From contig JACKPC010000001.1 in assembly GCA_024233835.1 (NCBI GenBank), positions 1,669,442 to 1,733,441 of the forward strand: DNA of 64,000 bases, read 5' to 3'. The position numbers and the translations under genes were made by a program. The DNA comes from Leptospiraceae bacterium (lineage in GTDB: Bacteria; Spirochaetota; Leptospiria; Leptospirales; Leptospiraceae). This document shows, one piece after another, positions 8,328-63,670 of this stretch (position 1 is its first letter; the number at the start of each line of letters is the position of its first letter). The notes beneath the pieces are model-generated. The model had not been told where the DNA came from and did no database searches. It worked only from the letters and a program-made list of their open reading frames with translations.

Positions 8328-8613
8328 ATGAACAGTGATTGTTTGGAGCTTTATCTTCCCCTTACATACAGAGTGAGCGATGATGTCTTGCAGGCAATTC
8401 AGCGATTAAACCATGACCTCATTATTGACCTGAGAAAAGAAAACGGTATCGGGATCCGGGTTACAGAGGACTTATCCGAACAAAAATATATTGAGCTAAG
8501 ATTTCCCGAAGGATTCCTACCTGCCGAAAGCTTTGAGGAGCTTACAAGTAACAGAGACAGGCTGCATTTTGAACAAAAAGGGGGAGACGATTTTTATAAA
8601 AATGGGAACAATT
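8328..8613 (+). pseudogene. Truncated membrane-anchored Uma2-like paralog (N-terminal ~90 codons only), interrupted by an IS insertion and an upstream frameshift
   Basis: Nearly identical at protein and DNA level to the first ~90 codons of 11970..12728 (MNSDCLELYLPLTxRVSDDVLQAIQRLNHDLIID...). An extra G at ~8580 shifts the frame. Homology stops at ~8613, where IS sequence begins. Confidence 0.6.
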
Positions 8614-8743
8614 TACAGCAATTCCCGCTTTGCTTGTAACAGGCAGATAAGGCTAAGATTTTTGGGTTTGCAGGGAATGCTTTCGTAAACTTTTTCATCA
8701 AAAATCGCTTGTACCTGTACAGGGATATAGTCTTTTTGACTAT

Positions 8744-9442
8744 ATGTCAGGCAAAAACGAGTTACACGCACGGGTAGATTTATCAGCAGATGGACTTTAT
8801 CAAGCAATTCGGGAGGAATTTTCTAAAATTCCAGACCACAGGGTCAATCCTTCGATTTCTCTAACAGATGCTTTGATGTCAGCCTTTGCTATCTTTTTTC
8901 AAAAGAACGCATCACTTCTTGAGTTTGAAAGAGAAAAAGTGAAGAATAAAAATCTTCAAAGTATATACAAGATTCAAGAGATACCTTCTGACACTCAAAT
9001 GAGAGAAATTGTTGATGAAGTTTCAACAGGAGCTTTCAGGAAAATATATAAAAACCTTTTTTCAAAACTTCAGCGTGGCAAGGTTCTCGAATCTTATCGT
9101 GTCCTTGATGATTATTATATTCTTTCCGGAGACGGAACCGGATTCTTCTCTTCAGAGAAAATTCATTGTGAATGCTGTCTTATAAAGAATAATAAAAGTG
9201 GAACTCTTTACCAGCATATGATGTATGGTGCCTGTATTGTGCATCCGGATAAGAAAGAAGTTATCCCTCTTATGTTTGAACCTATTACAAACGAAGATGG
9301 GAAAACAAAAAATGATTGTGAGTTAAACGCTTCTAAACGATTTATTGAAGATTTTAGAAGAGAGCATCCTCATTTAAAAACAATATTTGTAGAGGATTCT
9401 CTGTTTTCAAATGCTCCCCACATTGAATTACTGAGAGTATAA
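8744..9442 (+). CDS. DDE transposase, N-terminal part (split ORF)
   Basis: 232 aa ending at TAA. It continues conceptually in the next ORF, which is in a different frame. Confidence 0.65.
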   Translation: MSGKNELHARVDLSADGLYQAIREEFSKIPDHRVNPSISLTDALMSAFAIFFQKNASLLEFEREKVKNKNLQSIYKIQEIPSDTQMREIVDEVSTGAFRKIYKNLFSKLQRGKVLESYRVLDDYYILSGDGTGFFSSEKIHCECCLIKNNKSGTLYQHMMYGACIVHPDKKEVIPLMFEPITNEDGKTKNDCELNASKRFIEDFRREHPHLKTIFVEDSLFSNAPHIELLRV

Positions 9443-9464
9443 GCAAGTTGATAAGAAAGAGCAT

Positions 9465-9863
9465 ATGATTGCTTTTAGCTGGGTTACAGATATTGAAATT
9501 ACAAAAGAAAATGCTTATGAATTGATGCGAATCGCGAGAGCACGATGGAAGATAGAAAATGAAACCTTCAATACTCTAAAAAATCAGGGTTATCACTTTG
9601 AACATAATTATGGACATGGCAGTAAGGATTTGTCTAATAACTTTGCAACTCTTATGATACTTGCTTTTCTTGTAGATCAGATCCAACAATCAAGCTGTGC
9701 ATTATTCCGAAAAGCACTTGGGACTTTTCATGCAAAAAGATTGTTCTGGCAAAAGATAAGAAGCTTATTTGAAATATTTGAATTTTCATCTATGGAAGAG
9801 CTATTCCAGGCCATTGCTTATGGATTTAAAGCAAATATTTCTATAGGACAAAATTCATCATAG
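9465..9863 (+). CDS. DDE transposase, C-terminal part with the ARARWKIENETFNTLK motif (the YxxRWxIExxF signature of IS4/IS5-type transposases)
   Basis: 132 aa. It is separated from the N-terminal part by a stop and a frame change, so it is either inactivated or a sequencing frameshift. Confidence 0.65.
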   Translation: MIAFSWVTDIEITKENAYELMRIARARWKIENETFNTLKNQGYHFEHNYGHGSKDLSNNFATLMILAFLVDQIQQSSCALFRKALGTFHAKRLFWQKIRSLFEIFEFSSMEELFQAIAYGFKANISIGQNSS

Positions 9864-11102: not shown

Positions 11103-11870
11103 ATGGAAACAGAGTGTGTTGAACTGCAAATTCCCCGGCAGTATAGGCTTACAGATGAAGTAATCAAAATCCTGCAAATTCTAAACCATGACTTAATCAT
11201 AGATTTTGTAAAAGAAAATGGTGTGATTATAAAGCCAAAAACCCCGGAATTTGCAGGCCAGAAATACATCGATCTGAAGTTTCCTGAGGACTTTTTTCAT
11301 CCGGAAAACTTCGATGAACTTTATGAAGCCAATGAGCACCGGTTTCGGTTTGAACGGGTAGGGGAGACGATACGAATAAAAATGGGTTTTGGAAGTATAA
11401 TTGGTTTAATCACAGCAGCGATTGTTAGCTCCCTTTACATCTGGGCAAAAAAGACAAAGTCAGGAAGAGTGCGTTCAGATCAATCCGAATTTGAGTTTTA
11501 TAATGAAGAAACAGAAAGCCTTGAAAAAAGAATTCCCGATGTTTCTTATATTAGTTTTGAAAAGGTAAATGAAAAGGAACAAAAATCATGGGGCACAGGA
11601 AAGATTAAAGTTGCACCTACTCTGAGTATTGAAATAGTTTCTTCCAAATATGGCCTGAAGCCCGCTCTCTGGAAAATGCAACATGTATGGATGCAGTTCG
11701 GAACTGATATTGGAGTTGTAGTCTGTCCCTTTTCGAAAAAGCTGTACATTTTTGAGAAAGGTAAATCGAACCATATAGAACAAAGCATTTATCACAAGTT
11801 TACCCATACCCTCCTTCCCGACTATGAAGGTGATTTCAGCGAATATGTAGATGAAATAAGTGAATCCTGA
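11103..11870 (+). CDS. Membrane-anchored Uma2-family (PD-(D/E)XK-like) protein, paralog 1 (255 aa)
   Basis: N-terminal ~95 aa domain, one predicted TM helix (IIGLITAAIVSSLYIWA), and a C-terminal region with Uma2-like motifs (VSYISF...APTLSIEIVSSKYGLKPALWKMQ..MQFGTDIGVVVCPFSKKLYIF). Confidence 0.6.
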   Translation: METECVELQIPRQYRLTDEVIKILQILNHDLIIDFVKENGVIIKPKTPEFAGQKYIDLKFPEDFFHPENFDELYEANEHRFRFERVGETIRIKMGFGSIIGLITAAIVSSLYIWAKKTKSGRVRSDQSEFEFYNEETESLEKRIPDVSYISFEKVNEKEQKSWGTGKIKVAPTLSIEIVSSKYGLKPALWKMQHVWMQFGTDIGVVVCPFSKKLYIFEKGKSNHIEQSIYHKFTHTLLPDYEGDFSEYVDEISES

Positions 11871-11969
11871 GACTTGTATCTTAGGGATTAGGATGTGCTC
11901 AGGTTAAAGCCGGTTTTGAAAGATGAAAAAGCTTGACTATAAATTCGCATAGTATCAAACTATCCACCT

Positions 11970-12728
11970 ATGAACAGTGATTGTTTGGAGCTTTATCTTC
12001 CCCTTACATGCAGAGTGAGCGATGATGTCTTGCAGGCAATTCAACGATTAAACCATGACCTCATTATTGACCTGAGAAAAGAAAACGGTATCGGGATCCG
12101 GGTTACAGATGATTTATCCGAACAAAAATATATTGAGCTAAGATTTCCCGAAGGATTCATTCCTGCCGAAAACTTTGAGGAGCTTACAAGTAACAGAGAT
12201 AAGCTGTACTTTGAACAAAAAGGGGAGACGATTTTTATAAAAATGGGAACGATTTATACAATTGGTTTAATTACTATGGCAATCGGAGCCTCCCTGTACA
12301 TGTGGGCCAAAAAAAATAAAACCGGTAGAGTTTTACCCGAAAATTCTACCTATCAGTTGAGCGATTCTAAAACCGGTAAAACCGAAATCAGGATGGCAGA
12401 TATTTCCTATATCAGTTATGGGAAAGCTTCCGAGTCGGAGCAAAAAAAATGGGGGAAAAATTGTCCCATCGCTCCTACACTCAGCATTGAAATAGTTTCT
12501 TCCAAATATGGCCTGAAGCCCGCTCTCTGGAAAATGCAATATGTATGGATGCAGTTCGGAACTGATATTGGAGTTGTAGTCTGTCCCTTTTCGAAAAAGC
12601 TGTACATTTTTGAGAAAGGTAAATCGAACCATATAGAACAAAGCATTTATCACAAGTTTACCCATACCCTCCTTCCCGACTATGAAGGTGATTTCAGCGA
12701 ATATGTAGATGAAATAAGTGAATCCTGA
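11970..12728 (+). CDS. Membrane-anchored Uma2-family protein, paralog 2 (252 aa)
   Basis: Same architecture as paralog 1. The last ~245 nt are identical to paralog 1 apart from one substitution, while the 5' two-thirds are diverged. Confidence 0.6.
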   Translation: MNSDCLELYLPLTCRVSDDVLQAIQRLNHDLIIDLRKENGIGIRVTDDLSEQKYIELRFPEGFIPAENFEELTSNRDKLYFEQKGETIFIKMGTIYTIGLITMAIGASLYMWAKKNKTGRVLPENSTYQLSDSKTGKTEIRMADISYISYGKASESEQKKWGKNCPIAPTLSIEIVSSKYGLKPALWKMQYVWMQFGTDIGVVVCPFSKKLYIFEKGKSNHIEQSIYHKFTHTLLPDYEGDFSEYVDEISES

Positions 12729-12880
12729 GACTTCTGTCCCGGAGAAATTTGAAAGCTCTTTAGTTTTCACCGAGAATTGTTGGCAATGTCCTGTTTTGAG
12801 TTCTTTTCTTTCCTGAAAACTTATGAAAATATCTTGTATAGAAAACTTATATTAGATAAGCTGTTCGTTCAGGGGGCTTT

Positions 12881-49968: not shown

Positions 49969-50109
49969 ATGGACAAAACTGTTTCTTTTTTTGATTCCGT
50001 TTACCTGGTCTCTATAAGTTTATACTCATTTATTCAGCGCAAGGCTGATAGCATCTCTATTTTAGTAGATGTCTGGGAATGCCTTTATCAGAAGGGAGTT
50101 CTACAATGA
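49969..50109 (+). CDS. Small ORF (46 aa) with a strong RBS, translationally coupled (ATGA overlap) to the next small gene
   Basis: AAGGAG 7 nt before the ATG. Its stop overlaps the start of 50106..50303. Hydrophobic N-terminal half. Confidence 0.25.
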   Translation: MDKTVSFFDSVYLVSISLYSFIQRKADSISILVDVWECLYQKGVLQ

Positions 50110-50303
50110 GTAAAACATATCGGGACAAAAAACGTACAAATGAAATGGTGAAACAGTTTCCGGATAAAGAGATTTCTTATAAGACAAGAATGAAATGCTA
50201 TCGTGAGAAAGTAAGTTATTCAAAAAATTATGAAGAACGCTCAAAATGTTGGGATCAAATTAGATCAGATGATGATAAACTTGTAGAACTGGAGAATAAA
50301 TAA
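50106..50303 (+). CDS. Small basic protein (65 aa, Lys/Arg-rich, two Cys)
   Basis: MSKTYRDKKRTNEMVKQF... AGGGAG RBS. Its stop overlaps the next start (TAATG). Confidence 0.4.
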   Translation: MSKTYRDKKRTNEMVKQFPDKEISYKTRMKCYREKVSYSKNYEERSKCWDQIRSDDDKLVELENK

Positions 50304-51033
50304 TGGCTAAAACTATGAAAATCAAAGATCTGCGCTTTGTTCGTTTTGGTAATATAGGTAGCTATAAGCAGCATAGATACACAGCAAATGAAAAAGACAT
50401 GAACAACCACCACCCACCTGCAAAATGGGGAATGTATGCATTTCCGGAAGCTGGTATATTTCTAGCACCTGTTACCCTTCGCATATTGGAGGGAAATGCA
50501 TCTGGGCAAAAGACGAGAATGGCAAGTTAATTTCTGCCGAAAATTCTAAATACTATATGACAGAAACTATTCCGGATAAGGAATATCAACCTAATAAAGA
50601 GTTGAGAAAATTGTTAAATAAAAAAAATCAAAAGGTTTTTTATCTCGATTACTGGAGAAAACCCTGTTACTGTAGTACCTGTATGAAGGATAAACAGGTC
50701 AGTCTAAAAAAGGAAAAAAAGCAGGATAATTGCAACAAAGAAAACTACTACTTGATGATTGTCCAAAAGCCAAAAGTTTTTTCCTATACAGGACCGGTTT
50801 GGCATCATCTTGAAAAAACAACAAAACCCGGGGAATACTTAAAAATCAAAGGGGATTGGATTCTTTATGAATACAGGGACTTTGTGGAAATTTTTCACAG
50901 AGCCAGAGTTGCCTATAAAAAAGTTCAATATGAAGAATATAAAGGAACCAACCTGACACATACAGAATTTCCCAGAAGAAACATCTGGTATGGTTCGGGA
51001 GTGGAAGACGAAGTTTTTATTGAGAGAATATAG
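50303..51033 (+). pseudogene. Hypothetical ~245 aa protein interrupted by a single frameshift near 50480-50490 (or a sequencing error)
   Basis: Two overlapping ORFs, 50303..50530 and 50425..51033, in different frames. Both look protein-like on each side of a GGAGGG run. Confidence 0.4.
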
Positions 51034-51070: not shown

Positions 51071-51667
51071 ATGTATACACATGCAATCATTTTAGATTTT
51101 GAAGCCACCTGCCAGGATGGACCTCGGATAAGTCCTCAGGAAATTATAGAATTTCCATCAGTTTTGGTGTCTCTTGAGCGCAGGGAAGTAATCGATGAGT
51201 TTCAGTCTTTTGTTCGACCGATTCATCATCCCCGATTAACCGATTTTTGCAAAAAGCTTACTTCTATACAACAGGAAGATGTGGATAAAGCCGAATTATT
51301 TCCTGATGTATTCCAAAAGCACCTTGCCTGGTTAAAGAGCCATGATTTGACGGAGAATAATGCATTTATTGTTACCTGCGGTGATTGGGATCTTAAGTCC
51401 GGGTTTCCGGCACAATGTTCACATTCCGAACCTGTAATAGAAGTGGTTCCACCTATATATCAACAATGGCATAATGTGAAACATTCTTTCTGTGACGCTC
51501 AGGGAGTAGAAAAAGCTCCGGGTATGAGAGGAATGCTAAAAGCCCTGGAACTGCCCTTAGTCGGGTGGCATCACAGGGGAATTGATGATTGTAGAAACAT
51601 AGCCAGGATTTTTTTAAAGCTTATGGAGAAAGGCATTAGTCCAGAGATAAGTTCTGTTTCAGGATAA
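51071..51667 (+). CDS. DEDDh 3'-5' exonuclease of the ERI-1/3'hExo-like (DnaQ-like) family
   Basis: Exo I ILDFEATC, Exo II CGDWDL, Exo III HRGIDDCRNIA (H-x4-D). 198 aa. Confidence 0.8.
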   Translation: MYTHAIILDFEATCQDGPRISPQEIIEFPSVLVSLERREVIDEFQSFVRPIHHPRLTDFCKKLTSIQQEDVDKAELFPDVFQKHLAWLKSHDLTENNAFIVTCGDWDLKSGFPAQCSHSEPVIEVVPPIYQQWHNVKHSFCDAQGVEKAPGMRGMLKALELPLVGWHHRGIDDCRNIARIFLKLMEKGISPEISSVSG

Positions 51668-51798: not shown

Positions 51799-53031
51799 CT
51801 AAAACCTATAACTGAAACCACTTGAAATATAGAATCCGGAATTTCCATCCGCTCCTATCATTCTATCGGAAGATAATTTGACATCGACTTTCTTTTTAGG
51901 AGGCATTTCCCCTTCTGCAAATAGGATTACATCGATTATATTTATCATCCAGATACCACCTACAATTTTTGCATAGGTATTTGCTTTTTGTTCGGCCTGC
52001 TTTAAGCGAGTATGGTTTTTATCATTCAACATATAGCTTAACCAGAAACTATTACCATAGTAGGAGGAAAGAAAATCTGGATTAGTACCATAGGGCCAGC
52101 CATTGAAATCCCGGTATTCCTTTTCCCGCTTCTTTAAATTTCTATAAGAAACTGCATAGACCAATGCACTTATCACTGTTGCTGAAAAGAAACTTATCGC
52201 TTTCAGGTTAGAACCATCTCTTCTTTGACCCCAGCCCGGCACCAGTGTGGAACGCCATATCATCGGCCATTTTACAGATTTACCCTCATAAGGGTTTTTT
52301 AGGGATTGTTGTTCCAAATACTCCATGGTTCCACCGGTAATCTTTTTCGCTAAAAACTCCACAGATTCTTCTGCTCCTTCTTCTGAAAGTTCTTCTATTA
52401 AAAGACTTTCCGAAAAATCCACCTTTTGCTTCTTAATGTCTATAACATCAGCGTTTATAAAAATATGGGTTCCGGCTCTGGAAATAGTTCCGGTAAGAAT
52501 CTTATTGGCTCTTAGTTCTACCGGAATCAGGGCAGCACAGTCGGAGCCTATACATTTCTTTCCGGCCAGGGCTTTTTCTATACTCCTGCTGTCGATTACA
52601 GAAAACAAATTTGTTTTAGTGATTTTCGTTTTTAAGAGATTACTATACATTTCTGCTTTTTCTTTTGGTATACCTGTGCCTATTTGGAACTTAATGAACA
52701 CGAGCCTTGGCTTTTCGTCTTCCGGGATAACCCAATCTGTATTGCTCATAAAAGCATCGGCCACCCTGACTCTCTCTTTTTCATAGAGCTCCTTGCGATG
52801 TTGTCCGAGGGCCTGAGCCAATGCCCAATGCACCGGTTTTAGTTTTAGCGATTTTACTACAACCTTCTTAAATTCGTTCGTTCTACCGCTCGAATAGGTA
52901 ATATGGACATGAGTTTCTGTAAGTTTGGCCCTGACATCCTCAATTACCTTTCCGTTTTTTAGAGTAAGTGTATCGGATAGAAGAGCAGACGATAATAGGG
53001 AGCATAATAATATACTAATATAGCTTTTCAT
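51799..53031 (-). CDS. Hypothetical lipoprotein/membrane protein
   Basis: 410 aa with a signal peptide (ILLCSLLSSALLS) and C-terminal hydrophobic segments. Confidence 0.4.
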   Translation of the reverse strand: MKSYISILLCSLLSSALLSDTLTLKNGKVIEDVRAKLTETHVHITYSSGRTNEFKKVVVKSLKLKPVHWALAQALGQHRKELYEKERVRVADAFMSNTDWVIPEDEKPRLVFIKFQIGTGIPKEKAEMYSNLLKTKITKTNLFSVIDSRSIEKALAGKKCIGSDCAALIPVELRANKILTGTISRAGTHIFINADVIDIKKQKVDFSESLLIEELSEEGAEESVEFLAKKITGGTMEYLEQQSLKNPYEGKSVKWPMIWRSTLVPGWGQRRDGSNLKAISFFSATVISALVYAVSYRNLKKREKEYRDFNGWPYGTNPDFLSSYYGNSFWLSYMLNDKNHTRLKQAEQKANTYAKIVGGIWMINIIDVILFAEGEMPPKKKVDVKLSSDRMIGADGNSGFYISSGFSYRF

Positions 53032-53067: not shown

Positions 53068-55428
53068 TCAAGGTCCGTAGCGAACACAACGGACATTGTT
53101 GAGATAATAGGTCTTAGTGTAGTTGTCGACAGAGCCATTGAGGAAGTAGACGTACCATGCGGAGAGGTCAGAAGAAATGAGGCCACTCGCCGACCAATAG
53201 CCGGACAAAATTGTATTAGGAAAGAAAATTCCATTAATTTTTGCTCCTGTATCTTCGTTCTCTCCGGATAAATCTATCAATGTCTTTAATTCTTCAATTG
53301 TAGGTACCCGCCAACCTGTTTTCCCGGCAAAACCACCTGTTGGATTTGTATTCAAATCATTACAGGAGTTATATGCTGTACTGGAACCATCGTTCAGAAA
53401 TGTACCCAGAATTCCCGTATTGTTTCCTCCATTGCAGTCATTATCCATCTCATTGCAATAATAATATGTTCCTGCGTTTCCATCACAAGCATTTGTATTA
53501 TTATTCCATGTCTGTCCCTGACTACACTTCTTCCATATCAGTCCTGTGCTTTTGTCATAGATTGTGCCATCGCCATTATCAACATACCAGGTCTTTGCTT
53601 CCATATAAGGATCACAGGATATTACAATATTGGATACATTAGAAGTTATAGTTCCGCTTGCATTAAGAACAGTACAGGTCTGATCGGTAGGGTTTGTTTT
53701 TACTGTTACTGCATAGAAAGTATTGTAATTGATATTAGTTGCAAAGGTAAAGTTACCATTGGAATTTAAAGTCAATTCGTTTCCACTGTTCAGTTGCAAT
53801 ACAATGCTTTTAGAACTTCCCATACCCGATAATTCCCCTCCTATAGTATAATTTGTGGTTACACAACTTACGCTGACATTGGAGACATTGGCTGTAGCTG
53901 TTCCGATTCCATTGGAAAGTGTACAGGTCTGACCGGCAGGCTGGGTTTTGATGGTTACGTTATACAAATACGCTACTGATTTAGAAAAGGTAAAGTTGCC
54001 ATCGGCATTTATGCTTAGCTCATCTCCTCCGTTGTTCTGTAGTACCAACATTCCACTGAGTCCTGTTACTGTGCCTCCGATGGTAAAACTCTGGCAACTC
54101 ACGCTTACATTTGTAACATTAGTAATAGCAGTTCCACTAGCATTGCTAACTGTACATGTCTGCCCGGTGGGCTGGGTTTTCACTGTTACACTATAATCAC
54201 CCGCAACATCTGTGGAAAATTTAAAACTACCATTAGAAGTGATAGTTATATCATCTCCACCATTCTTTTGTAATACAAGAGTACCGCTCAATCCGCTTAC
54301 TGTTCCTGCCACAGTATAGGTAACAAGTCTGCCTGTGGTAAAACTGTAGGTTTTATTTTCGCCCAGAGAGTTTCCTGCCAGATCCTTTATTGTGCCAAGA
54401 ATAGTGATGCGGTGCTTCGTACTGGTGCGAAAGCTTTCATTCACTCGAAAGATTAGAGTCTTTTCTTCTCCGCTGACAGTTCCCGGAACATTTTTACTAT
54501 TTTCATTTTTATCAATCTCTACTATAGATAAGGATTGAGTATTCAAAGTAGTTATATCAATTGCTTCTGAGAAAATTAAAGTTATAAGAGTATTATTCGA
54601 CACATTCGTTGAGCCATCTGTCGGAATCACAGTTTCCACAACAGGTGGAGAGTTGTCTAAAATATCGTTGGTAGTAAAACTTATGTTTGTTGCTGTCGCA
54701 AGAGAATTACCGGCAAGGTCTTTGATTCCTGTTTGAATGAAAATTGTATAATTTGTCCAGGAGGAAAAGATGGCGGATGGTTTAAGCTGCACGACACTGC
54801 CGATAAACTCTAATTCTTTTTCTAATATAGTGTCTCCCTGTTTTAAGATAATAGTTTCATTACTCACCGTATCCGGATCTAAAGCCTCATTGAATACCAA
54901 TTGGATAGATGTATTTCTAACTATCTCAGAGGAAGAATTTGCCGGATAGCTGGTTTTTATAGAAGGAGATTCGTTATCTATATTATTATTGGTGGTGAAA
55001 TATATGAGTTCTTCGACCGGATTTTCCTGTGTATTACCCTCTAAATCCCGGACATTGTTCATAAATTTGACTGTGTGTTTTGTGTTTGCCGTATAGTATT
55101 CGGAAGGTGTAAACTTCAGGGTATTTTTAGAAATGCTAACAGTTCCTTGAATTTCTTTACCACCTGCATCATAGACCTAGAGGGTAGTTTCATTGGCAGA
55201 AGTGGAAATAAGGTTTTCATCATACACAATTAAAAAGGAGCGATTGCGGGCTATGTCGGTCTCGTAATTATAAGGTGTGGTATAGTTTACCTCGGGTGGA
55301 GTTTTATCCTTTTGTAACCAGAGATAATGCAAAAACAAACCGGGTGAGGGTTCAAAAGGATTATTGAAGTTTATCCCCGGAGTACAGGAAGAAAGAAAAA
55401 TAAGAAGTAGAATTACCAACCATTTCAT
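53068..55428 (-). pseudogene. Lipoprotein with SbsA-type Ig-like domains and a C-terminal DUF1566 (Lcl-C) domain, split by one in-frame TAG at 55174-55176
   Basis: The 55177..55428 ORF (signal peptide + lipobox, homologous to the N-terminus of 57998..60079) and the 53068..55062 ORF are in the same frame, separated by a single TAG. C-terminus KTWYVDN.DGTIYDKSTGLIW..CSQGQTW...WRVPT..EL..L...YWS (DUF1566). Confidence 0.6.
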
Positions 55429-55446
55429 GATGAGAGTCCGATATCT

Positions 55447-55475
55447 ATGATATGCTTTTTCATTTAATAAAGCAA
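55447..55475 (-). promoter_or_regulatory. Putative sigma70-type promoter of the lipoprotein gene (minus strand TTGCTT-N17-TATCAT)
   Basis: The same block is conserved upstream of the three lipoprotein gene copies/remnants (55429-55505, 60080-60135, 61277-61350). Confidence 0.3.
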
Positions 55476-55526
55476 GAATAAAAATATAGTTTACAGCAAT
55501 TATGAACAGTTTAGGCTACTACTAAG

Positions 55527-56285
55527 ATGAAACCGCCGGAAGAAAAAGAGACCTATCACCTAATTTTCCCCGAACAATACCCGCTACCTCCTCGCATTCA
55601 GGAACTTTCGAGGCTCAATACCGAACTAAGTTTATCGTATCAAGAAAATACATTGATTATCCGGGAAGCTCCCCCCTACGCCTTTCGAGACTATGAAAAC
55701 TTTCTTTTACGCCTTCCGGGTTTTACTGAAGAACTATTCTTTCAACTCGAAGAACTGAACGATGAAACACATTTTGAATTTGATGATAACGAGGAGGTCA
55801 TTGTTAAAATGTCTACTTTTGCATTAATAAGTTTATTAACAGGTGCTGTTTTAACTTCCCTTTTTATCTGGGCAAAGTCCAGAAAGAGCGGCAGGGTGTA
55901 CACAGAAGACGGAGGCTATATGCTCGAAAGCCCGAACGGAAAACATCTTCATAGAATGGCGGATATTTCTTATATAGCCTACAGTAAAGCTTCCCCGGAA
56001 GAACAGGCTAGCTGGTATTCCCGCATTCCCATAGCTCCGAGTCTTGCGGTTGAAGTTGTATCGGCTAAAAGAGGTTTAAAACCGGCACTGAAAAAAATGA
56101 AAGATATCTGGATGGCAAACGGCACTGAACTCGGGCTTGTTATCTGTCCTTTCAGTAAGAAAATCTATATATTTGAAATATCTAAAGAATCCTATACCGA
56201 ACAGAGTATATTCGAGGATTTCACCCATCCCGACCTCCCCGGCTACAAAGAAAACTTCAGCGAATATGTAGAAAAGATAAAATAG
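55527..56285 (+). CDS. Membrane-anchored Uma2-family (PD-(D/E)XK-like) protein, paralog 3
   Basis: Same architecture as 11103/11970: N-terminal domain, TM helix (FALISLLTGAVLTSLFIWA), and C-terminal ADISYIAY...APSLAVEVVSAKRGLKPALKKM...GTELGLVICPFSKKIYIFE. Confidence 0.6.
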   Translation: MKPPEEKETYHLIFPEQYPLPPRIQELSRLNTELSLSYQENTLIIREAPPYAFRDYENFLLRLPGFTEELFFQLEELNDETHFEFDDNEEVIVKMSTFALISLLTGAVLTSLFIWAKSRKSGRVYTEDGGYMLESPNGKHLHRMADISYIAYSKASPEEQASWYSRIPIAPSLAVEVVSAKRGLKPALKKMKDIWMANGTELGLVICPFSKKIYIFEISKESYTEQSIFEDFTHPDLPGYKENFSEYVEKIK

Positions 56286-56363
56286 CTCTAAAACCTAAAA
56301 CCGCTTGAAATATAGAATCCGGGAATAGTTAGTTTCATAATTATAAGGCGTGCTAAAGTTTAC

Positions 56364-56680
56364 CTACGGTGGTGTTTTGTCAGTCTGCAACCAGAGGTAG
56401 TGTAAGAGAAGACCGGGTGAGGGTTCAAAGACATTATTGTAGTTTATTTCTCCAAGGCAGGAGAAGAGTAAAAGAGTTACTATAGACAAGAACTTTTTCA
56501 TATAATTATACACAATTTCACATAATTCCATATTGAATATACATAAGTTTTTCGAACATCTCAAGTGTTTTTTTCTTTTTCATCTTTTTTAGTAAGATAT
56601 CCATCAGTATATATTACCTTTCACGCACTACAGTTCGGAGCGAACACAACGAACGTAGTTGCAGTTTGTTTCGTTTTTTA
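56364..56680 (-). pseudogene. Deletion remnant of a DUF1566 lipoprotein gene (N-terminal 60 codons plus the last ~10 codons; ~2 kb of interior missing)
   Basis: The 56364..56564 ORF retains the signal peptide and FEPSPGLLLHYLWLQTDKTPP. 56620-56680 retains the ...NYVRCVRSEL* 3' end, similar to the ends of the intact copies. Confidence 0.5.
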
Positions 56681-56709
56681 ATTTGGATAATTCCAAAGTT
56701 GGAGGAAAA

Positions 56710-57888
56710 TCAAATAGTTTCTAATTCTTTTGTTTTAATAATTGAATCAATAATTATCTTCTTTTTTGCTTGGAATTTTTCAAAAAGAACTTTCTGTTTT
56801 TCATTCAACTCGGTACCATATTTTGCTTCTATTAATATTCTATCTTCAGTAAGAAAATCCAGTTCTACTTCTTCCTGTAAATAATATATTTTACTTTTAT
56901 TTCTTATTAGAAGATAAATATAATTTTCAAAATAACTTCCTAAGTCTCTTTCTCCATGGAATAAAAACTTTATACCGAGATCACTTGCATAAACCTTCTT
57001 TGGACTCAATATTTTTTCATTTGTTTTTCCCCATCTTGATACAAGATGAATAAGGTATGTTGCTTCAAAATAAGACAGATAGCGTCTCGAAGTATCAGGA
57101 GAAATTTTTAATATTTTTGCTATTTTATTTATACTGATCTGTTTTCCACTTCTTTCCATCAACAAAGAAAAGTAGTCACGCATAACGTCACTATTTTTTA
57201 AACCGTAAAAAGCCGTTATGTCTTTTTGAATAATATCTTCTACAAGTCCCATCAAATATTGTCTTTCGGGATAATTAATATTTTCTGGCATTCCTCCTAT
57301 TTTAATGTAATCTTTGAAATAGGAATCTAAAAGAGAAGCATCTCTTTTTTTGACTGAGATTCCTTTAAAATCCAGGAATTCAAAAAAGTCCAGGGGTTGT
57401 ACTTCAAATACTGTAGTTCTACCTGTTAAATTTGCTCTTTTATCTTTAAGAAGAGAACTTGAAGAAGACGTAGCAATGATTTTTAAATTTTCTTTATCAA
57501 ATAAGTTTTTAAGCTGAATTTCATATTCATTTTTATATGTGATTTCATCAAAAAAAAGATAAGACTTTTCTTCAGATTTAATTTTGCATATTTTTCTATA
57601 TAAAGTGAGAATCTCGTGGATTGAGTTATTCTTAAATAAATAATCATCCATACTGATATAAAAAATATTTTTAGGTTTAATTCCTTTTTTTAAAAGATGG
57701 TGGATCATCAATTTCATGAGACTTGTTTTTCCCACCCGCCTGAGACCTGTAAGAAAAAGGATTCTATTTTCATTCAACCAGAATGGGAACTTTTCCTTAA
57801 GGCTTTTCCTATTCCACAATTCTATCTTAAAATCATTTTCCCACCACGGATTATAAGAATAAAGCGATTCTTCCATTTGAACAACCAT
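56710..57888 (-). CDS. AAA+ ATPase, AAA_14 + DUF4143 family
   Basis: 392 aa with Walker A GLRRVGKTSL, Walker B FFDEI and a DUF4143 C-terminus. Very AT-rich. Confidence 0.85.
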   Translation of the reverse strand: MVVQMEESLYSYNPWWENDFKIELWNRKSLKEKFPFWLNENRILFLTGLRRVGKTSLMKLMIHHLLKKGIKPKNIFYISMDDYLFKNNSIHEILTLYRKICKIKSEEKSYLFFDEITYKNEYEIQLKNLFDKENLKIIATSSSSSLLKDKRANLTGRTTVFEVQPLDFFEFLDFKGISVKKRDASLLDSYFKDYIKIGGMPENINYPERQYLMGLVEDIIQKDITAFYGLKNSDVMRDYFSLLMERSGKQISINKIAKILKISPDTSRRYLSYFEATYLIHLVSRWGKTNEKILSPKKVYASDLGIKFLFHGERDLGSYFENYIYLLIRNKSKIYYLQEEVELDFLTEDRILIEAKYGTELNEKQKVLFEKFQAKKKIIIDSIIKTKELETI

Positions 57889-57997
57889 ACTATCATATCG
57901 TATATTTGTCTACAATAATATATGTTTCAATCGTATAGGTAAGCATTTTATCTACTTTATTCTTACTCCATAATTCAAAAATTAATTTCCATTTACA

Positions 57998-60079
57998 CTA
58001 CGGTCCGGATACACAACGTACATAGCCGTCAAAGGTCTTAGAGACGCTGTGGACATAGCCAGTAACGAAACCGACGAGCAACGCGCTCGTAGTATTAGGC
58101 GCATAGGTAGTAGAACTCCAATAAAAGCCAGCAATGGTATTTGGAAATAAATTTCCATTGTTCAAAGCCCCTGTTGAAGAATAATTTTGTCCTGATAGAT
58201 CCAATAGAGTCTCCAACTCAGTAACAGAAGGAACTCTCCAATTGGTTCTTCCGGCAAATCCAGCAGGGGGATTAGAATTCAAATTATTGCATTGTGTGTA
58301 AGCTTCGCTTGTCCCGGTTCCATTTAAAGTATAGGGAGGATTTCCCGATGCATCAGAGTTACAACTATTATTATTAACGTCACAATATCGATATTTTACT
58401 GCAGTTCCATCACAACTATTTGTGTTTTCATTCCATGTCTGTCCCTGGCTACACTTTAGCCAGATTAGTCCCGTACTTTTATCATAGATTGTTCCATCTT
58501 TATTATCCACATACCAGGTCTTGGATTCCATATAGGGATTACATGACACCGTAATATTAGAGACGTTAGCAGTTGCTGTTCCTGTTGCATTGAGAATGGT
58601 ACATGTTTGAGTGGAAGGGTTTGTTTTTACAGTTACTGCATATGAATTATTATAATTGATGTTTGTTCCAAAAGTAAAACTTCCATTGGAATTTAAAGTT
58701 AAATCACTACCACTATTCAGTTGTAAAACAATATTTTTTCCACTCCCCATTCCTGAAAGATTCCCGCTGATAGGAAAAGCCGATGTAACACAACTCACGC
58801 TTATATTGCTCACATTTGCAGAGGCTGTACCATTGCCATTGCTAACTGTACATGTCTGTCCCGTGGGTTGTGTTTTTGCAGTCACACTATAATAACTTGA
58901 TACACCGGTGGTAAATGTAAGACTTCCATCGGATGTAAGAGTCAATTCATCTCCACCGTTATTTTGTAATATTAGAGTTCCACTCAATCCGCTGACAGTT
59001 CCACCAACCGTATAGGTGACAAGTCTGCCTGTGGTAAAATTATAAGTTTTATTGGTCCCCATGGCATTGCCGGACAGGTCTTTTATCGTACCCATAAGGG
59101 TGATTTGGTGTTTGGTACTCGTTCGAAAACTTTCATTCACACGAAAGATAAGACTCCTGCCTTCTCCACTTACAGCACCCGGTACTTTTTTGATACTTCC
59201 ATCTTCAAATATTTCTTCTATATAAAAAGAAGAGGTATTCAAAGTATTCACATCTATAGCCTCGGAAAAATTTACCGTTATAAGAGTATTATTCGACACA
59301 TTCGTTGAACCATCCGCCGGAATCACCGTTTCTATTACCGGGGGAGTTCTGTCCGAGGTATCTGTTGTGGTAAAACTGATTGTTTGTTCAGACGCCAGAG
59401 CATTGCCGGACAGATCCTTTATCCCGGTGGTAATCAATAATGCATATGTAGTGTTGGGTTGAAACCCAACAACAGGTTGAAACCCAACACCGGGCTTAGG
59501 AAGTTGTATCTGTACCACAGAGCCATAAGAGGAAATCTCTGTCTCAATGACAGTGTCTCCCTGTTTCAGTATAAAAGTATCCGTACTCGCATTCAGAGGA
59601 GTGCTGGTTTTTAAAATAGGAGGCTCTGTGTCTATATCATTACCCGTGGTAAAGTAAAAAACATCTTCCTTGAACACAGGCTGCACATTCCCCGCTAAAT
59701 CTTTCACGCTCTTTTGCAGCTTTACCGTATGTAAGCTATTCGCTGCATAGTATTCCGTCGGTATGAATTTTAGAGTATTCCTATTTACTTCTAATTTGCC
59801 CGGAACCTGAGTCGTAGCATGAAAAACCTGTAAAGTGTTTTCCTTCACAGACTCAGAAAGAATGGGTTCATCATATACTATTAATATAGAACGATTCCGG
59901 GAATAGTTAGTTTCGTAATTATAAGGTGTTGTATAGTTTACCTCGGGTGGAGTTTTATCCTTTTGTAACCAGAGATAATGCAAAAACAAACCGGGTGAGG
60001 GTTCAAAAGGATTATTAAAGTTTATCCCCGGAGCGCAGGAGGTAAAGAAAATTAGAAGTAGGTATACCAACCGTTTCAT
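57998..60079 (-). CDS. Lipoprotein with SbsA-type Ig-like domains and a C-terminal DUF1566 (Lcl-C) domain (intact, 693 aa)
   Basis: Lipobox LIFFTSCAPG. Ig-like PPVIETVIPADGSTNVSNNTLITVNFSEAID. C-terminus KTWYVDNKDGTIYDKSTGLIWLKCSQGQTW...WRVPSVTELETLLDL..YWSS. Confidence 0.7.
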   Translation of the reverse strand: MKRLVYLLLIFFTSCAPGINFNNPFEPSPGLFLHYLWLQKDKTPPEVNYTTPYNYETNYSRNRSILIVYDEPILSESVKENTLQVFHATTQVPGKLEVNRNTLKFIPTEYYAANSLHTVKLQKSVKDLAGNVQPVFKEDVFYFTTGNDIDTEPPILKTSTPLNASTDTFILKQGDTVIETEISSYGSVVQIQLPKPGVGFQPVVGFQPNTTYALLITTGIKDLSGNALASEQTISFTTTDTSDRTPPVIETVIPADGSTNVSNNTLITVNFSEAIDVNTLNTSSFYIEEIFEDGSIKKVPGAVSGEGRSLIFRVNESFRTSTKHQITLMGTIKDLSGNAMGTNKTYNFTTGRLVTYTVGGTVSGLSGTLILQNNGGDELTLTSDGSLTFTTGVSSYYSVTAKTQPTGQTCTVSNGNGTASANVSNISVSCVTSAFPISGNLSGMGSGKNIVLQLNSGSDLTLNSNGSFTFGTNINYNNSYAVTVKTNPSTQTCTILNATGTATANVSNITVSCNPYMESKTWYVDNKDGTIYDKSTGLIWLKCSQGQTWNENTNSCDGTAVKYRYCDVNNNSCNSDASGNPPYTLNGTGTSEAYTQCNNLNSNPPAGFAGRTNWRVPSVTELETLLDLSGQNYSSTGALNNGNLFPNTIAGFYWSSTTYAPNTTSALLVGFVTGYVHSVSKTFDGYVRCVSGP

Positions 60080-60179
60080 GATGAGAGCCCGATATTTATA
60101 ATATACTTTTTTAATAAATAAGGCAAGAGAAAATTAATCTTTATGAAGAAAAACTCTTTCTTTTTAAATATACTTTCTC

Positions 60180-60208
60180 TTGACAGACTCTCAACAATTA
60201 CGTAAAAT
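60180..60208 (+). promoter_or_regulatory. Near-consensus sigma70 promoter TTGACA-N17-TAAAAT, about 24 nt upstream of the Uma2-like gene
   Basis: Read directly from the sequence: ttgaca gactctcaacaattacg taaaat. Confidence 0.45.
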
Positions 60209-60231
60209 GGAAAAATTAAATGGGAACTGAG

Positions 60232-60990
60232 ATGAAACCGCCGGAAGAAAAAGAGACCTATCACCTAATTTTCCCCGAACAATACCCGCTGCCTCCTCGC
60301 ATTCAGGAACTTTCGAGGCTCAATACCGAACTAAGTTTATCGTATCAAGAAAATACATTGATTATCCGGGAAGCTCCCCCCTACGCCTTTCGAGACTATG
60401 AAAATTTTCTTTTACGCCTTCCGGGTTTTACTGAAGAACTATTCTTTCAACTCGAAGAACTGAACGATGAAACACATTTTGAATTTGATGATAAAGAGGA
60501 GGTCATTGTTAAAATGTCTACTTTTGCATTAATAAGTTTATTAACAGGTGCTGTTTTAACTTCCCTTTTTATCTGGGCAAAGTCCAGAAAGAGCGGCAGG
60601 GTATACACAGAAGACGGAGGCTATATGCTCGAAAGCCCGGACGGAAAACATCTTCATAGAATGGCGGATATTTCTTATATAGCCTACAGTAAAGCTTCAC
60701 AGGAAGAACAGGCTAGCTGGTATTCCCGCATTCCCATAGCTCCGAGTCTTGCGGTTGAAATTGTCTCTGCTAAAAGAGGTTTAAAACCGGCACTGAAAAA
60801 AATGAAAGATATCTGGATGGCAAACGGCACTGAACTCGGGTTTGTTATCTGTCCCTTTAGTAAGAAAATCTATATATTTGAAATATCTAAAGAATCCTAT
60901 ACCGAACAGAGTATATTCGAGGATTTCACCCATCCCGACCTCCCCGGCTACAAAGAAAACTTCAGTGAATATGCAAAAAAGATAAAGTAG
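60232..60990 (+). CDS. Membrane-anchored Uma2-family protein, paralog 4 (near-identical to 55527..56285)
   Basis: Only about five amino-acid differences from paralog 3. The start is taken at MKPPEEKE. Confidence 0.6.
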   Translation: MKPPEEKETYHLIFPEQYPLPPRIQELSRLNTELSLSYQENTLIIREAPPYAFRDYENFLLRLPGFTEELFFQLEELNDETHFEFDDKEEVIVKMSTFALISLLTGAVLTSLFIWAKSRKSGRVYTEDGGYMLESPDGKHLHRMADISYIAYSKASQEEQASWYSRIPIAPSLAVEIVSAKRGLKPALKKMKDIWMANGTELGFVICPFSKKIYIFEISKESYTEQSIFEDFTHPDLPGYKENFSEYAKKIK

Positions 60991-61276
60991 TTCTAAAAAT
61001 AACCAAAATCACCTGTACACCAACGTCGCCAGAGCATTCCCCGCCAGATCCTTTATCCCTGTTTTAAGATAAGCTTATCCGCTGTAAGCGTTTCCGGGAA
61101 TAGTTGGTTTCGTAATTATAAGGACTGGTAAAATTTACATCTGGTGGGGTTTTGTCCCTTTGCAACCACAGGTAATGCAAAAAAAGACCGGGCATGGGCT
61201 CGAAGAGGTTATTGTAATTTACGCTTCCAATGCAGGAAGAAAGAAAAATGAGAAGTAGAAATACCAGTCGTTTCAT
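60991..61276 (-). pseudogene. Deletion remnant of a third DUF1566 lipoprotein gene (N-terminal ~55 codons plus short interior pieces)
   Basis: The 61064..61276 ORF has a signal peptide, lipobox and FEPMPGLFLHYLWLQRDKTPPDVNFTSPYNYETNYSR. 61020-61060 matches an interior segment (cattccccgccagatcctttatccc). The conserved promoter block lies upstream. Confidence 0.45.
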
Positions 61277-61373
61277 GATGAGAATCCGATATTTATGATA
61301 TGCTTTTTTATGTAATAAAGCAAGAATAAAATATAGTTTACAGCAATAGAGGATTGCTTACACTGATTCTTAC

Positions 61374-62897
61374 ATGGCACGACCTCGTTATTTCAATACC
61401 TCCGGTCCGAATATTCCGGAGGAGCATTATACCCTGTTCCGTCCTGCTTTAATGGCAAAAGGTCGTGATATGGTTGAGAGAAGCCGTTATTTCACCATCT
61501 GGGCACCAAGACAAACCGGAAAAAGCACCTATTTTCGTCTTCTGGCAAAGGAGCTGGAAAAAGATGATTATAAAGTCTGTCATATTAATTTTGAGAACTA
61601 TATGAATGCCAGTCTGGAGTCTTTTTTAAAAACATTTGTTCAGGAAATAAACCAAAATTGGGGAACAAATATATCTTTAACGGAGATTTCAGATATAATC
61701 CAACAGTTAAAGGGGATTGCAGATAAAAAACTTGTTCTGATTATTGATGAAGTCGAAGGAATTAATTCTGAATTTTTTAATGAATTTTTACATTCCATTC
61801 GTAATGCTTATCATTCTCGTAATAACCATTCCTTAAAATCCGTAATCCTTGTCGGAGTTTCGAATATCACAGGAATCATACAGGACAATGCCAGTCCTTT
61901 TAACATTGCTGATGATTTGAGTTTATCATATTTTTCTAATGAAGAAACCGTTGAACTTTTAGAGCAACATGAAACAGAAACCGGTCAAATTTTCTCCGAT
62001 GAAGTAAAACAAAAAATAATCGGTATGACAGCCAACCAGCCGGGTCTTGTGAATGGCTTTGCCTATAAACTGGTTGAGCTTTGTCCGGGCAAAAAAGAAA
62101 TCACTTTAGACGACTATTTTACAATTGAAGAATGGTATCTTACAGAAGCGATTGATAAGAATGTGAGTAATATAATCAATAAATCTAAAAAATATAGAAA
62201 GTTTGTTGAAGAGCTTTTGTTTACCGAAACTAAAATCCCCTTCAAAATCGATAGACCTGCAATATTAGAATTATATATAAACGGAATTATTAAAAAAGAC
62301 GATACCGGCAATATTGAGTTCTGGGTTCCTCTTTATAAAAACAGGTTGTTAAATGCTTTTTTTCCCTATTCGAATGGGGAAAGTGAACGTATTGCCCGGA
62401 ACATGCTCTCAACAGCTTATCTTAACGAAGATGGAAAAATTAACTTTAAGAAATTAATCGATAGCTATAAAGAACACATCTCTCTTCGTAGCTTTCGGCC
62501 TTTCCGGGAAAAAGATGAAGAGGGAAAATTTGTTTCCATTCCGGAAGCTGCGATGATCTATAGCTTTGAAACCTTTATCAGTATCTTCATCCGTGAACTC
62601 GATGGTAAAATTTATCGTGAAGGATTTGTATCTCTCGGCAACACCGATATGATTATCAATGTTGAAGGCCATGAGTATCTGTTGGAATTAAAAAAATACT
62701 ACAGCCCCTCCTATTTTAAAAAAGGTAAAAAACAACTCGCCTACTACTGCAAACGAGCAGGATTAACGGAAGGTCATTATATCATTTATGTAGACAACCG
62801 GACAAAACCGGAGTTCGTTTCGGAAGAACCGGAAGTTATTGAGAGTATTACTATATACTCTTATCTTATCTGGTATGATGAAGAGAAAGACTTTTGA
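61374..62897 (+). CDS. AAA-type ATPase fused to a C-terminal PD-(D/E)XK nuclease-like domain
   Basis: 507 aa. N-terminal RYFNTSGP...YFTIWAPRQTGKSTYF (Walker A) and LIIDEVE (Walker B). C-terminal GNTDMIINVEGHEYLLELKKY (D...E.K core). Confidence 0.6.
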   Translation: MARPRYFNTSGPNIPEEHYTLFRPALMAKGRDMVERSRYFTIWAPRQTGKSTYFRLLAKELEKDDYKVCHINFENYMNASLESFLKTFVQEINQNWGTNISLTEISDIIQQLKGIADKKLVLIIDEVEGINSEFFNEFLHSIRNAYHSRNNHSLKSVILVGVSNITGIIQDNASPFNIADDLSLSYFSNEETVELLEQHETETGQIFSDEVKQKIIGMTANQPGLVNGFAYKLVELCPGKKEITLDDYFTIEEWYLTEAIDKNVSNIINKSKKYRKFVEELLFTETKIPFKIDRPAILELYINGIIKKDDTGNIEFWVPLYKNRLLNAFFPYSNGESERIARNMLSTAYLNEDGKINFKKLIDSYKEHISLRSFRPFREKDEEGKFVSIPEAAMIYSFETFISIFIRELDGKIYREGFVSLGNTDMIINVEGHEYLLELKKYYSPSYFKKGKKQLAYYCKRAGLTEGHYIIYVDNRTKPEFVSEEPEVIESITIYSYLIWYDEEKDF

Positions 62898-62965: not shown

Positions 62966-63670
62966 TCACTCAAACAATTTTTCTACATTTTGCCAGGGCA
63001 TGATATTTACTTCATTTTGTATTTTTTCTTCATCCCCTCCATAGATAAGAAATTTGTTTGTTATCTGTAATTCTGTTTTAGAATAATACTTTAAGTTTTT
63101 AAAGAAATCAGAAGTTATCGTTGAAGCTGATTTTACTTCACATAAATCTACGAAAATCCCTTTATCGATAAGGAAGTCTATTTCATGACCTTTTTTATCT
63201 CGTAGGAAATATACATCTTCTTTATTACCCCTGTTGTATTGGGTTTTTAAGATTTCAGAAAAAACAAGAGTTTCAAAAATAGCTCCTTTTAAAGGATGAG
63301 AAAAAATTTGTTCAAAACTTTTAATACCCAGAAGATAACAGACAAGGCCGGTATCTAAAAAAAATAATTTTGGTGCTTTTATTAACCTCTTATTTATATT
63401 TTTAAAATAAGGGCGAATTAGCTTGATAAGAAAGCTGGCTTCCAGAACATGAATCCATGATTTAATTGTGTTATGATTTACACCACAGGATGTGCCTATC
63501 TCATTCATATTGAGTAATTGGCCTGTCCTTCCGGCAAGAGATTGGCTTACATTCTGCATCAGTTCAAATTGGCAAACATCCGGGTTTTCCAGACTTACAT
63601 ATTTTTTGTGAGGAAAAAGGATTTTGCATAATGTCGTTTTACCGGACTGCCTGGGGCCGGTTATGGTCAA
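62966..63670 (-). CDS. DUF4143-family ATPase, short form (234 aa, TTG start; upstream in-frame homology is interrupted by stops)
   Basis: Walker A GPRQSGKTTL at residue 5 and a DUF4143-like C-terminus (VYFLRDKKGHEIDFLIDKG). The upstream in-frame sequence still reads ...PKNCKQYPI before reaching stop codons. Confidence 0.55.
   Translation of the reverse strand: MTITGPRQSGKTTLCKILFPHKKYVSLENPDVCQFELMQNVSQSLAGRTGQLLNMNEIGTSCGVNHNTIKSWIHVLEASFLIKLIRPYFKNINKRLIKAPKLFFLDTGLVCYLLGIKSFEQIFSHPLKGAIFETLVFSEILKTQYNRGNKEDVYFLRDKKGHEIDFLIDKGIFVDLCEVKSASTITSDFFKNLKYYSKTELQITNKFLIYGGDEEKIQNEVNIMPWQNVEKLFE

Follow-up and report, generated by a model that had tools for sequence, protein, structure and literature searches.

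The 64,000-nucleotide (nt) window analyzed here, a stretch of contig JACKPC010000001.1 from an uncultured Leptospiraceae bacterium that is known from metagenome-assembled genomes (MAGs) only, contains a repeated locus in which genes for lipoproteins with Big_5 and Lcl_C (DUF1566) domains stand divergently beside genes for Uma2-like proteins. Our results lead us to believe, with a probability of about 70%, that this locus is an old lipoprotein array in birth and death, with interspersed nuclease and ATPase genes, whose Uma2 copies were recently homogenized by gene conversion. The adjacency of the two families would therefore be a by-product of local duplication and not the mark of a two-component system.

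The order of genes between 53.0 and 62.9 kb, taken from the open reading frame (ORF) map and Pfam matches, is that of two copies of a tripartite unit (53068-~56560 and 57998-~61347), each made up of a full lipoprotein gene, a divergent Uma2 gene, and a lipoprotein 5' stub. The first copy holds lipo1 (53068-55428, minus strand), a recent pseudogene for a lipoprotein with Big_5, three repeats of ~77 amino acids (aa), and Lcl_C; a divergent spacer of 98 nt (55429-55526), which holds a conserved block 5' of the lipoprotein ATG; Uma2-1 (55527-56285, plus strand), encoding a predicted PD-(D/E)xK endonuclease of 252 aa; and stub A, a lipoprotein 5' fragment (~56315-56501, minus strand). The second copy holds lipo2 (57998-60079, minus strand), which is intact and encodes 693 aa with three Big_5 domains, two of the ~77-aa repeats, and Lcl_C; a divergent spacer of 152 nt (60080-60231); Uma2-2 (60232-60990, plus strand); and stub B (minus strand), which is composed of an internal piece of the gene (61027-61059), codons 1 to 63 (61088-61276), and the upstream block (61277-~61347). 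A preliminary description of this DNA had seen three repeats of a two-gene module, where we find two tripartite units, with lipoprotein 5' ends present four times and Uma2 genes twice. Its family calls (an Ig-like/DUF1566 lipoprotein and a Uma2-like protein) are correct by Pfam, the divergent geometry of a lipoprotein gene on the minus strand and a Uma2 gene on the plus strand was borne out, and the distance of ~100 to 150 nt that it gave agrees with the two spacers. The gene remnants that it reported are real as well, but stub A covers 56315-56501 and not 56364-56680, and stub B covers 61027-61276 plus the upstream block.

Divergence along the repeated unit

By Nei-Gojobori estimates, the synonymous (dS) and nonsynonymous (dN) divergence between Uma2-1 and Uma2-2 is 0.066 and 0.012 (17 of 759 nt differ, as do 7 aa; 97.5% identity), while lipo1 and lipo2 are separated by a dS of 1.23 and a dN of 0.27, an age gap of ~20-fold between the halves of one unit. 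The first 63 lipoprotein codons taken alone give 0.34 and 0.076, and the stubs differ from the full lipoprotein genes by a dS of 1.1 to 1.3 and a dN of 0.15 to 0.23. Between the units, identity is 95 to 99% over the Uma2 ORF (beginning ~6 nt 5' of the ATG and extending ~12 nt past the stop), 81 to 84% in the spacer, which carries indels, 88% over the first ~200 nt of the lipoprotein gene, 48 to 81% over the remainder of that gene, and 58 to 81% in the stubs. On these figures, the common ancestor of the two Uma2 copies appears to be much more recent than that of their flanks. Purifying selection alone is ruled out as the cause of the Uma2 identity, since synonymous sites are nearly identical too. 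A simple segmental duplication is likewise ruled out, by the contrast in dS between Uma2 and lipoprotein genes and by identities that range from 48 to 99% along the unit, and such uneven divergence requires a duplication plus later conversion. The preliminary description had named segmental duplication as the alternative to its own view of the pairing; that idea would hold for a local duplication, but a plain segmental duplication does not suffice in light of the 20-fold age gap.

We propose that four anciently diverged lipoprotein paralogues, which would be surface exposed and adhesin-like, formed a tandem array that underwent ordinary birth and death, leaving one copy intact, one with a recent nonsense mutation, and two cut to 5' stubs. 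Two solitary, presumably cytoplasmic Uma2 (DUF820/TT1808-type) genes and the AAA_14/DUF4143 and AAA_35 ATPase genes would have become embedded in this array. The tripartite unit of lipoprotein, Uma2, and stub would have been duplicated long ago, and later gene conversion would have homogenized the Uma2 genes, with a lesser effect on the adjoining spacer and lipoprotein 5' end, while the remaining lipoprotein sequence drifted to saturation at synonymous sites.

Conversion of this kind is directly visible in another cluster of Uma2 genes from the same subfamily, where two tandem full genes (11103-11870 and 11970-12728, both plus strand) share 42 to 46% aa identity with Uma2-1 and Uma2-2. Their 3' 263 nt (11613-11875 and 12471-12733) are 98% identical, and their first 150 codons are saturated at synonymous sites, so that the pair is a clear mosaic of gene conversion. 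Farther upstream, a Uma2 N-terminal fragment (8328-8639, within a feature at 8290-8639, plus strand) adjoins a split IS4-like transposase gene (8744-9863), and its positions 8290-8623 match 11932-12263 with 94.6% nt identity. The earlier statement that the Uma2 partner stays intact is therefore true of the two local copies, but not of this fragment beside an insertion sequence.

The block of 97.5% identity is bounded by the Uma2 ORF, with flanks of 58 to 88%, and such a pattern could also be produced by a selfish, homing-like Uma2 ORF that copies itself between array positions, or that inserts between tandem paralogues and deletes part of the neighbor. We consider this unlikely. Neither terminal repeats nor target duplications caught the eye in the alignments at the edges of the block, where no dedicated repeat search was made, and no empty-site allele was found in the two assemblies, both of the same strain. 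The ~25 nt 3' of each Uma2 stop are apparently homologous but diverged (roughly three-quarters identity, by eye in the alignment); together with stubs that end near codon 62 to 67, they suggest that Uma2 was in place at both sites by the time of the unit's duplication. In addition, the partial tracts in the pair at 11 to 12 kb show that ordinary conversion suffices.

We also considered whether the near-identity of the Uma2 genes might be an artifact of repeat collapse or cross-polishing in a MAG, which seems highly improbable. The window matches contigs of a second MAG, the short-read assembly GCA_020440905.1, at 99.9 to 100%, and in the comparison with one such contig (L001) 4 of 5,384 nt differ (60291, 60405, 60495, and 60603). 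All four sites lie in Uma2-2 (ORF positions 60, 174, 264, and 372) and all carry the Uma2-1 base in the short-read contig, which reflects a conversion polymorphism or else reads of one copy mixed with those of the other. An artifact would be in keeping with these four bases, with the breaks that the short-read assembly shows at the repeats, and with an organism represented by MAGs alone. On the other hand, 17 copy-specific differences persist and are spread across the ORF, the two assemblies are 100% identical outside Uma2, and similar mosaics are found among the Uma2 copies at 8 to 12 kb. Moreover, the lipo2 protein (P0012, 100% identical) is recorded on a 2.05-Mb contig, which is probably that of the window's own assembly.

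Lipoprotein genes, stubs, and spacers

The decay of the lipoprotein copies, which the preliminary description set against two intact local Uma2 genes, is confirmed in the form of one nonsense codon and two stubs. Apart from a single TAG at 55177-55179 (codon 84), lipo1 is one continuous frame of 786 codons, and lipo2 has CAG at the same place. Contig 615 (L018) of the short-read assembly GCA_020440905.1, which is independent, has this TAG too, and a base-calling slip of one assembly is therefore excluded. The N termini are of the lipoprotein type with a lipobox cysteine, MKRLVYLLLIFFTSC (lipo2) and MKWLVILLLIFLSSC, the lipobox having been read by eye, and the Pfam matches are 7e-43 for Big_5 and 3e-25 for Lcl_C. 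Signal peptide, lipobox cysteine, Big_5, and a C-terminal Lcl_C together place these proteins among the spirochetal Big_5/Lcl_C (DUF1566) lipoproteins, and the intact copy is best regarded as a probable surface adhesin-like protein. An internal repeat of ~231 to 249 nt (the ~77 aa mentioned above) occurs three times in lipo1 (53629-54264) and twice in lipo2 (58556-58960); it matches DUF4369 weakly and dominates thousands of database matches to "large repetitive proteins."

Both stubs keep ~61 to 63 N-terminal codons and break off near codon 62 to 67. Stub A retains ~61 codons, the 46th of which is an in-frame stop, and its truncated end lies ~30 nt from the stop codon of Uma2-1, while the 33-nt piece in stub B (61027-61059) is ~91% identical to 59393-59425, that is, to the interior of the gene. 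The preliminary description had assigned the same upstream promoter block to each copy. A block of ~55 nt 5' of the ATG is indeed common to lipo1, lipo2, and stub B, but it is much weaker in stub A, and we would regard it only as a putative promoter. A scan for promoter consensus sequences returned no more than a 9/12 site for lipo2, and its 37 sites barely exceed the expectation from shuffled sequence (26.6 ± 5.1).

The 152-nt spacer is homologous to the 98-nt spacer but contains ~50 nt of insertions. One insertion, absent from the Uma2-1 spacer, carries an 11/12 promoter-like site (TTGACA-17-TAAAAT, 60180-60208, plus strand) that faces Uma2-2; no comparable site was found 5' of Uma2-1, either by eye or among the sites listed by the scan, and the two Uma2 genes may perhaps be unequally expressed. 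At the other end of the locus, an AAA_35/AAA_22 ATPase gene (61374-62897, plus strand) holds the slot divergent from stub B that is equivalent to that of Uma2 beside lipo1 and lipo2. The stretch 5' of stub B (61328-61376) is homologous to part of the lipo1 spacer (55481-55529) as far as the ATG that starts the divergent gene, the AAA_35 ATPase in one case and Uma2 in the other, which implies that different genes occupy the same slot by the upstream block. No Rfam family at its gathering threshold and no tRNA was detected at the locus.

The stubs and the uneven lipoprotein divergence invite another idea, namely, that the Uma2 nuclease initiates recombination or conversion in the flanking lipoprotein paralogues and so gives rise to surface-protein variation or to deletions. 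In its favor, direct repeats of lipoprotein 5' ends (those of the full gene and the stub) stand on both sides of Uma2, the lipoprotein genes have diverged less at the 5' ends adjoining Uma2 (dS 0.34) than over their remaining length, these genes show differences in repeat number as well as deletions, and Uma2 lies between a full gene and a fragment at two further loci, described below (L005 and L002). Against it, the stubs keep only the conserved N terminus and the upstream block, in contrast to promoterless variable cassettes, an independent lipoprotein array (L016) contains a fragment and no Uma2, and flanking paralogues are absent at most Uma2 loci. We therefore assign this idea almost no likelihood.

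Neighborhoods of the Uma2 subfamily

The preliminary description suggested that the lipoprotein and Uma2 proteins are a functional pair; on this reading, the two would act together and be coregulated from the divergent spacer. Adjacency occurs twice in the window and once elsewhere (L005), and a short shared spacer with a conserved block would fit such a pair. However, the two occurrences in the window are copies of one unit and not independent, Uma2-1 has been kept beside a lipoprotein pseudogene, and the predicted compartments differ, with a nuclease fold of cytoplasmic type on one side and an exported lipoprotein on the other. We surveyed ~15 independent loci of the Uma2 subfamily, including 13 with usable flanks from other genomes and metagenomes. 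A DUF1566 neighbor was present in ~2 of the 15, divergent in the window and co-directional in L005, where the lipoprotein moreover lacks Big_5. The remaining ~13 loci lack the partner, and the paralogues of the window itself at 11103-11870 and 11970-12728 have no lipoprotein neighbor. In addition, the Spirochaetota MAG P01_B01_bin.8 carries the two families apart, with a lipoprotein array at one locus (L016) and Uma2 genes of the subfamily elsewhere (L007 and L008). A true pair is thus already largely refuted by the survey, and we judge it very unlikely.

The other neighborhoods are diverse. In a Leptospiraceae MAG (L002, 2239-8892), a Uma2 homologue (50% aa identity) is located between the hsdM gene of a type I restriction-modification system and an hsdS fragment of 113 aa; this fragment shares 65% identity with the last 75 residues of the hsdS product from that operon. 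At two loci on unrelated contigs (L003, 6675-11240; L007, 5968-11052), a gene for an SNF2 helicase of 1,250 to 1,390 aa follows 40 to 150 nt 3' of Uma2 on the same strand, an association as frequent as that with the lipoprotein, and the helicase may be the more meaningful partner. L003 also has a PDDEXK_2 gene downstream. Uma2 itself is tandemly duplicated in L006 and L014. Elsewhere it sits beside housekeeping genes, and the neighbors at L009 to L013, L015, and L019 are a PLP enzyme, a pyruvate:ferredoxin oxidoreductase-type enzyme, an MCP, a pseudouridine synthase, AAA ATPases, a PIN protein, and glycosyltransferases. L021, which carries the most similar Uma2 found in a different genome (65% aa identity), has no Big_5 or Lcl_C sequence within 286 nt upstream and ~1.3 kb downstream.

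The exception is another Leptospiraceae MAG (L005, 4748-7770), in which a DUF1566 lipoprotein gene, Uma2, and a 107-aa DUF1566 C-terminal fragment follow each other on one strand, the lipoprotein having two Lcl_C domains. The preliminary description would have taken the pairing to be a by-product of duplication if the two families were never adjacent in other genomes; strictly, they are adjacent in this one, and otherwise there was no DUF1566 neighbor among the 13 further loci. The synteny of L005 with the window is limited to Uma2 and Lcl_C, and the two loci may or may not descend from a common one. A DUF5683-like gene is adjacent in both (51799-53031 in the window), and the two DUF5683-like genes share a region of 125 aa with 30% identity. 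A canonical Uma2 gene lies ~3.5 kb upstream in L005 (1553-2308).

For the lipoprotein family, the highest-ranking full-length homologue outside the source genome (P0065, 41% identity) belongs to an array (L016 and L017) of two tandem Big_5/Lcl_C genes and an 88-aa Lcl_C fragment, without Uma2. Fragmenting arrays are thus normal for this family, and Uma2 is not needed for them. A full gene and a fragment flank Uma2 only in the window, in L005, and in L002, where the fragment is cut on the side away from Uma2, and a rule that Uma2 is always flanked in this way was rejected, as other loci have neither.

Several observations weigh against our reading of the locus as a decaying array with converted Uma2 genes. 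The edges of the Uma2 ORF coincide almost exactly with the ends of the high-identity block, which is tidier than conversion needs and would also fit ORF-precise copying. In a different Leptospiraceae genome (L005), Uma2 is again flanked by a full DUF1566 lipoprotein gene on one side and a DUF1566 fragment on the other. A lipoprotein neighbor at two of the four independent Leptospiraceae loci exceeds a chance expectation that we put roughly at 1 to 2% from our own estimate of DUF1566 gene density. Finally, the source genome has further full-length lipoprotein paralogues (P0017 and P0027), whose neighborhoods lie outside the survey. A weak nonrandom association of lipoprotein and Uma2 genes within the Leptospiraceae is therefore possible, and the likeliest reason for it is shared residence in variable islands.

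The survey also bears on the selfish, homing-like origin considered above. A truncated paralogue lies 3' of Uma2 in both units of the window and in L005, L006 and L014 have Uma2 copies that are in tandem or nearly identical, and the genomic context of Uma2 outside the cyanobacteria has been described as nonconserved and tied to mobile elements (Steczkiewicz 2012, PMC3424549). The hsdS fragment in L002, truncated as it is on the far side, does not fit insertion with loss of the adjoining sequence. A broader version of this idea, which we hold to be rather improbable, is that the rare Uma2 subfamily is a selfish recombinogenic nuclease that both spreads between tandem paralogue arrays and remodels them. 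It would explain the ORF-exact near-identity, the 3' truncated paralogue in two Leptospiraceae genomes, and the more similar lipoprotein 5' ends.

The Uma2 protein, the surrounding region, and known systems

The two Uma2 proteins match PF05685 with 45.1 and 41.4 bits (cutoff, 27), and a profile of their subfamily matches 1wdj (TT1808) at 8.6e-5 and 3ot2 at 6.8e-3. An AlphaFold2 (AF2) model of Uma2 (pLDDT, 86.5; pTM, 0.82) was matched by Foldseek to 1wdj with an E value of 1.8e-12 and a TM score of 0.84 normalized to the target (191 columns superposed); other matches were 6okh from Leptospira borgpetersenii (TM, 0.82), 3ot2 (TM, 0.81), and 9y1l. E84, D146, E176, and K190 are invariant in 14 subfamily sequences, and D146, E176, and K190 fall opposite the D, E, and K of TT1808 in the alignment, which makes it reasonable to suppose that Uma2 is an active PD-(D/E)xK nuclease. 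The fold is also that of the homing endonuclease I-Ssp6803I, as a selfish origin would have it, but the match to that structure (2ost) is nonsignificant (E, 0.027; TM, 0.2 to 0.3). The family is given only as a predicted endonuclease in PMC3424549 and PMC2701414, the latter viewing Uma2/COG4636 as a probable solo toxin that "mostly forms cassettes of paralogous genes."

Two traits set the subfamily apart, an N-terminal alpha/beta domain of ~65 aa and a fully hydrophobic core helix. The hydrophobic stretch, residues 98 to 116 (FALISLLTGAVLTSLFIWA), averages 2.05 on the Kyte-Doolittle scale over 19 residues, compared with 1.0 to 1.3 in two canonical Uma2 proteins. It falls in helix 99-119 of the AF2 model, with its C-terminal part aligned to TT1808 by the subfamily profile, and we read this helix as what is probably the first core helix of the nuclease fold, apparently covered by the N-terminal domain (residues ~9 to 62, placed confidently in the model). 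If the helix spanned a membrane, it would part E84 from D146, E176, and K190. The preliminary description had called Uma2 a membrane protein and possibly a membrane nuclease, presumably on account of this stretch; an integral membrane protein is rejected, as the segment lies inside the TT1808-type fold (AF2 and Foldseek), while a peripheral membrane association is possible. The subfamily is rare, with 11 clusters among 5.8 billion proteins, 11 loci among 185,579 species genomes, and 2 loci in a metagenome collection, and it occurs in Leptospiraceae, other Spirochaetota, and Bacteroidota. Matches to the PADLOC model PDC-S03, itself only a candidate, range from none (Uma2-1) through an E value of 0.03 (Uma2-2) to 4.9e-4 (P0006) and 6.7e-5 (the paralogue at 11103), while a canonical Uma2 protein (L019) matches at 1.6e-43.

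The region around the array looks like a variable, defense-island-like stretch. Between the two units lies an AAA_14 plus DUF4143 ATPase gene (56710-57888, minus strand), which matches the PADLOC defense candidate PDC-S01 at 3.8e-71. Another DUF4143 ATPase gene (62966-63670) has a TTG start, appears to be internally shortened, with an AAA_14 match over 35 residues only, and is probably another decaying island gene. Just upstream of the lipoprotein array there is a gene for a DEDDh 3'-5' exonuclease (51071-51667; KapD-like, with an NCBIfam match of 7.8e-20 that is below the cutoff), and before it come two ORFs (50079-51033) that match no family. Elsewhere in the window, an ORF of 234 aa (6352-7056, minus strand) resembles phage tail-fiber or collar-type proteins by the look of its sequence only.

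As it stands, the finding matters little. It is nevertheless a clean example of how one duplicated unit and gene conversion can give the appearance of a repeated gene pair, and it argues that dS age contrasts and neighborhood surveys should precede claims of functional coupling. It also defines a rare and distinctive Uma2 subfamily, and the thread worth following is the function of this subfamily and its position by truncated paralogues. The recurrent pattern of full gene, Uma2, and fragment, together with the two cases of Uma2 beside an SNF2 helicase, could seed a comparative study of Uma2 nucleases. If the selfish recombinogenic reading were true, it would give the so far functionless Uma2/DUF820 family a role in the dynamics of paralogue arrays.

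The components of the locus are new members of known families. The Uma2 proteins resemble Uma2/DUF820/COG4636 proteins such as TT1808 (1wdj) in their PF05685 match, their fold, and their D/E/K positions, and solitary or tandem genes at 11 to 12 kb of the window and in L006 and L014 recall the paralogue cassettes of that family (PMC2701414). Unlike canonical Uma2 proteins, they form a rare subfamily with the extra N-terminal domain and a hydrophobic instead of an amphipathic core helix, and this subfamily barely matches PDC-S03. The lipoproteins resemble leptospiral Lsa25 (LIC12253), a surface laminin-binding adhesin (PMC3444417), in their C-terminal Lcl_C/DUF1566 domain (1.9e-24 with the NCBIfam Lsa25 model) and in their signal peptide with a lipobox cysteine. 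The Lcl_C family is named after the Legionella adhesin Lcl, which recognizes sulfated glycosaminoglycans (PMC11162425). Unlike Lsa25, the lipoproteins in the window are much larger, with three Big_5 domains and two or three ~77-aa repeats, and a score of 86.7 bits against a cutoff of 260 implies that they are not Lsa25 orthologues.

At the level of the locus, three kinds of system invite comparison. In antigenic-variation systems such as vls, tprK, and pilS, one expression site is accompanied by partial cassettes that lack promoters and span the variable regions; a cassette system of this type is ruled out here, as the stubs cover the conserved ~63 N-terminal codons and retain the upstream block (more weakly in stub A). 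Free-standing homing endonuclease genes, for example, the seg and mob genes of phages, are similar in that a nuclease ORF lies between other genes and its near-identity is bounded by the ORF within diverged flanks, but the window differs from them in the absence of an empty-site allele from the assemblies, of a co-conversion gradient of high flank identity, and of a significant match to 2ost. Tandem arrays under concerted and birth-and-death evolution share with this locus the mosaic identity, the stubs, the pseudogenes, and the changes in repeat number, and arrays with fragments also occur at L016 and L017. Unlike in usual concerted evolution, the most homogenized segment here is the embedded nuclease gene and not a gene of the array itself.

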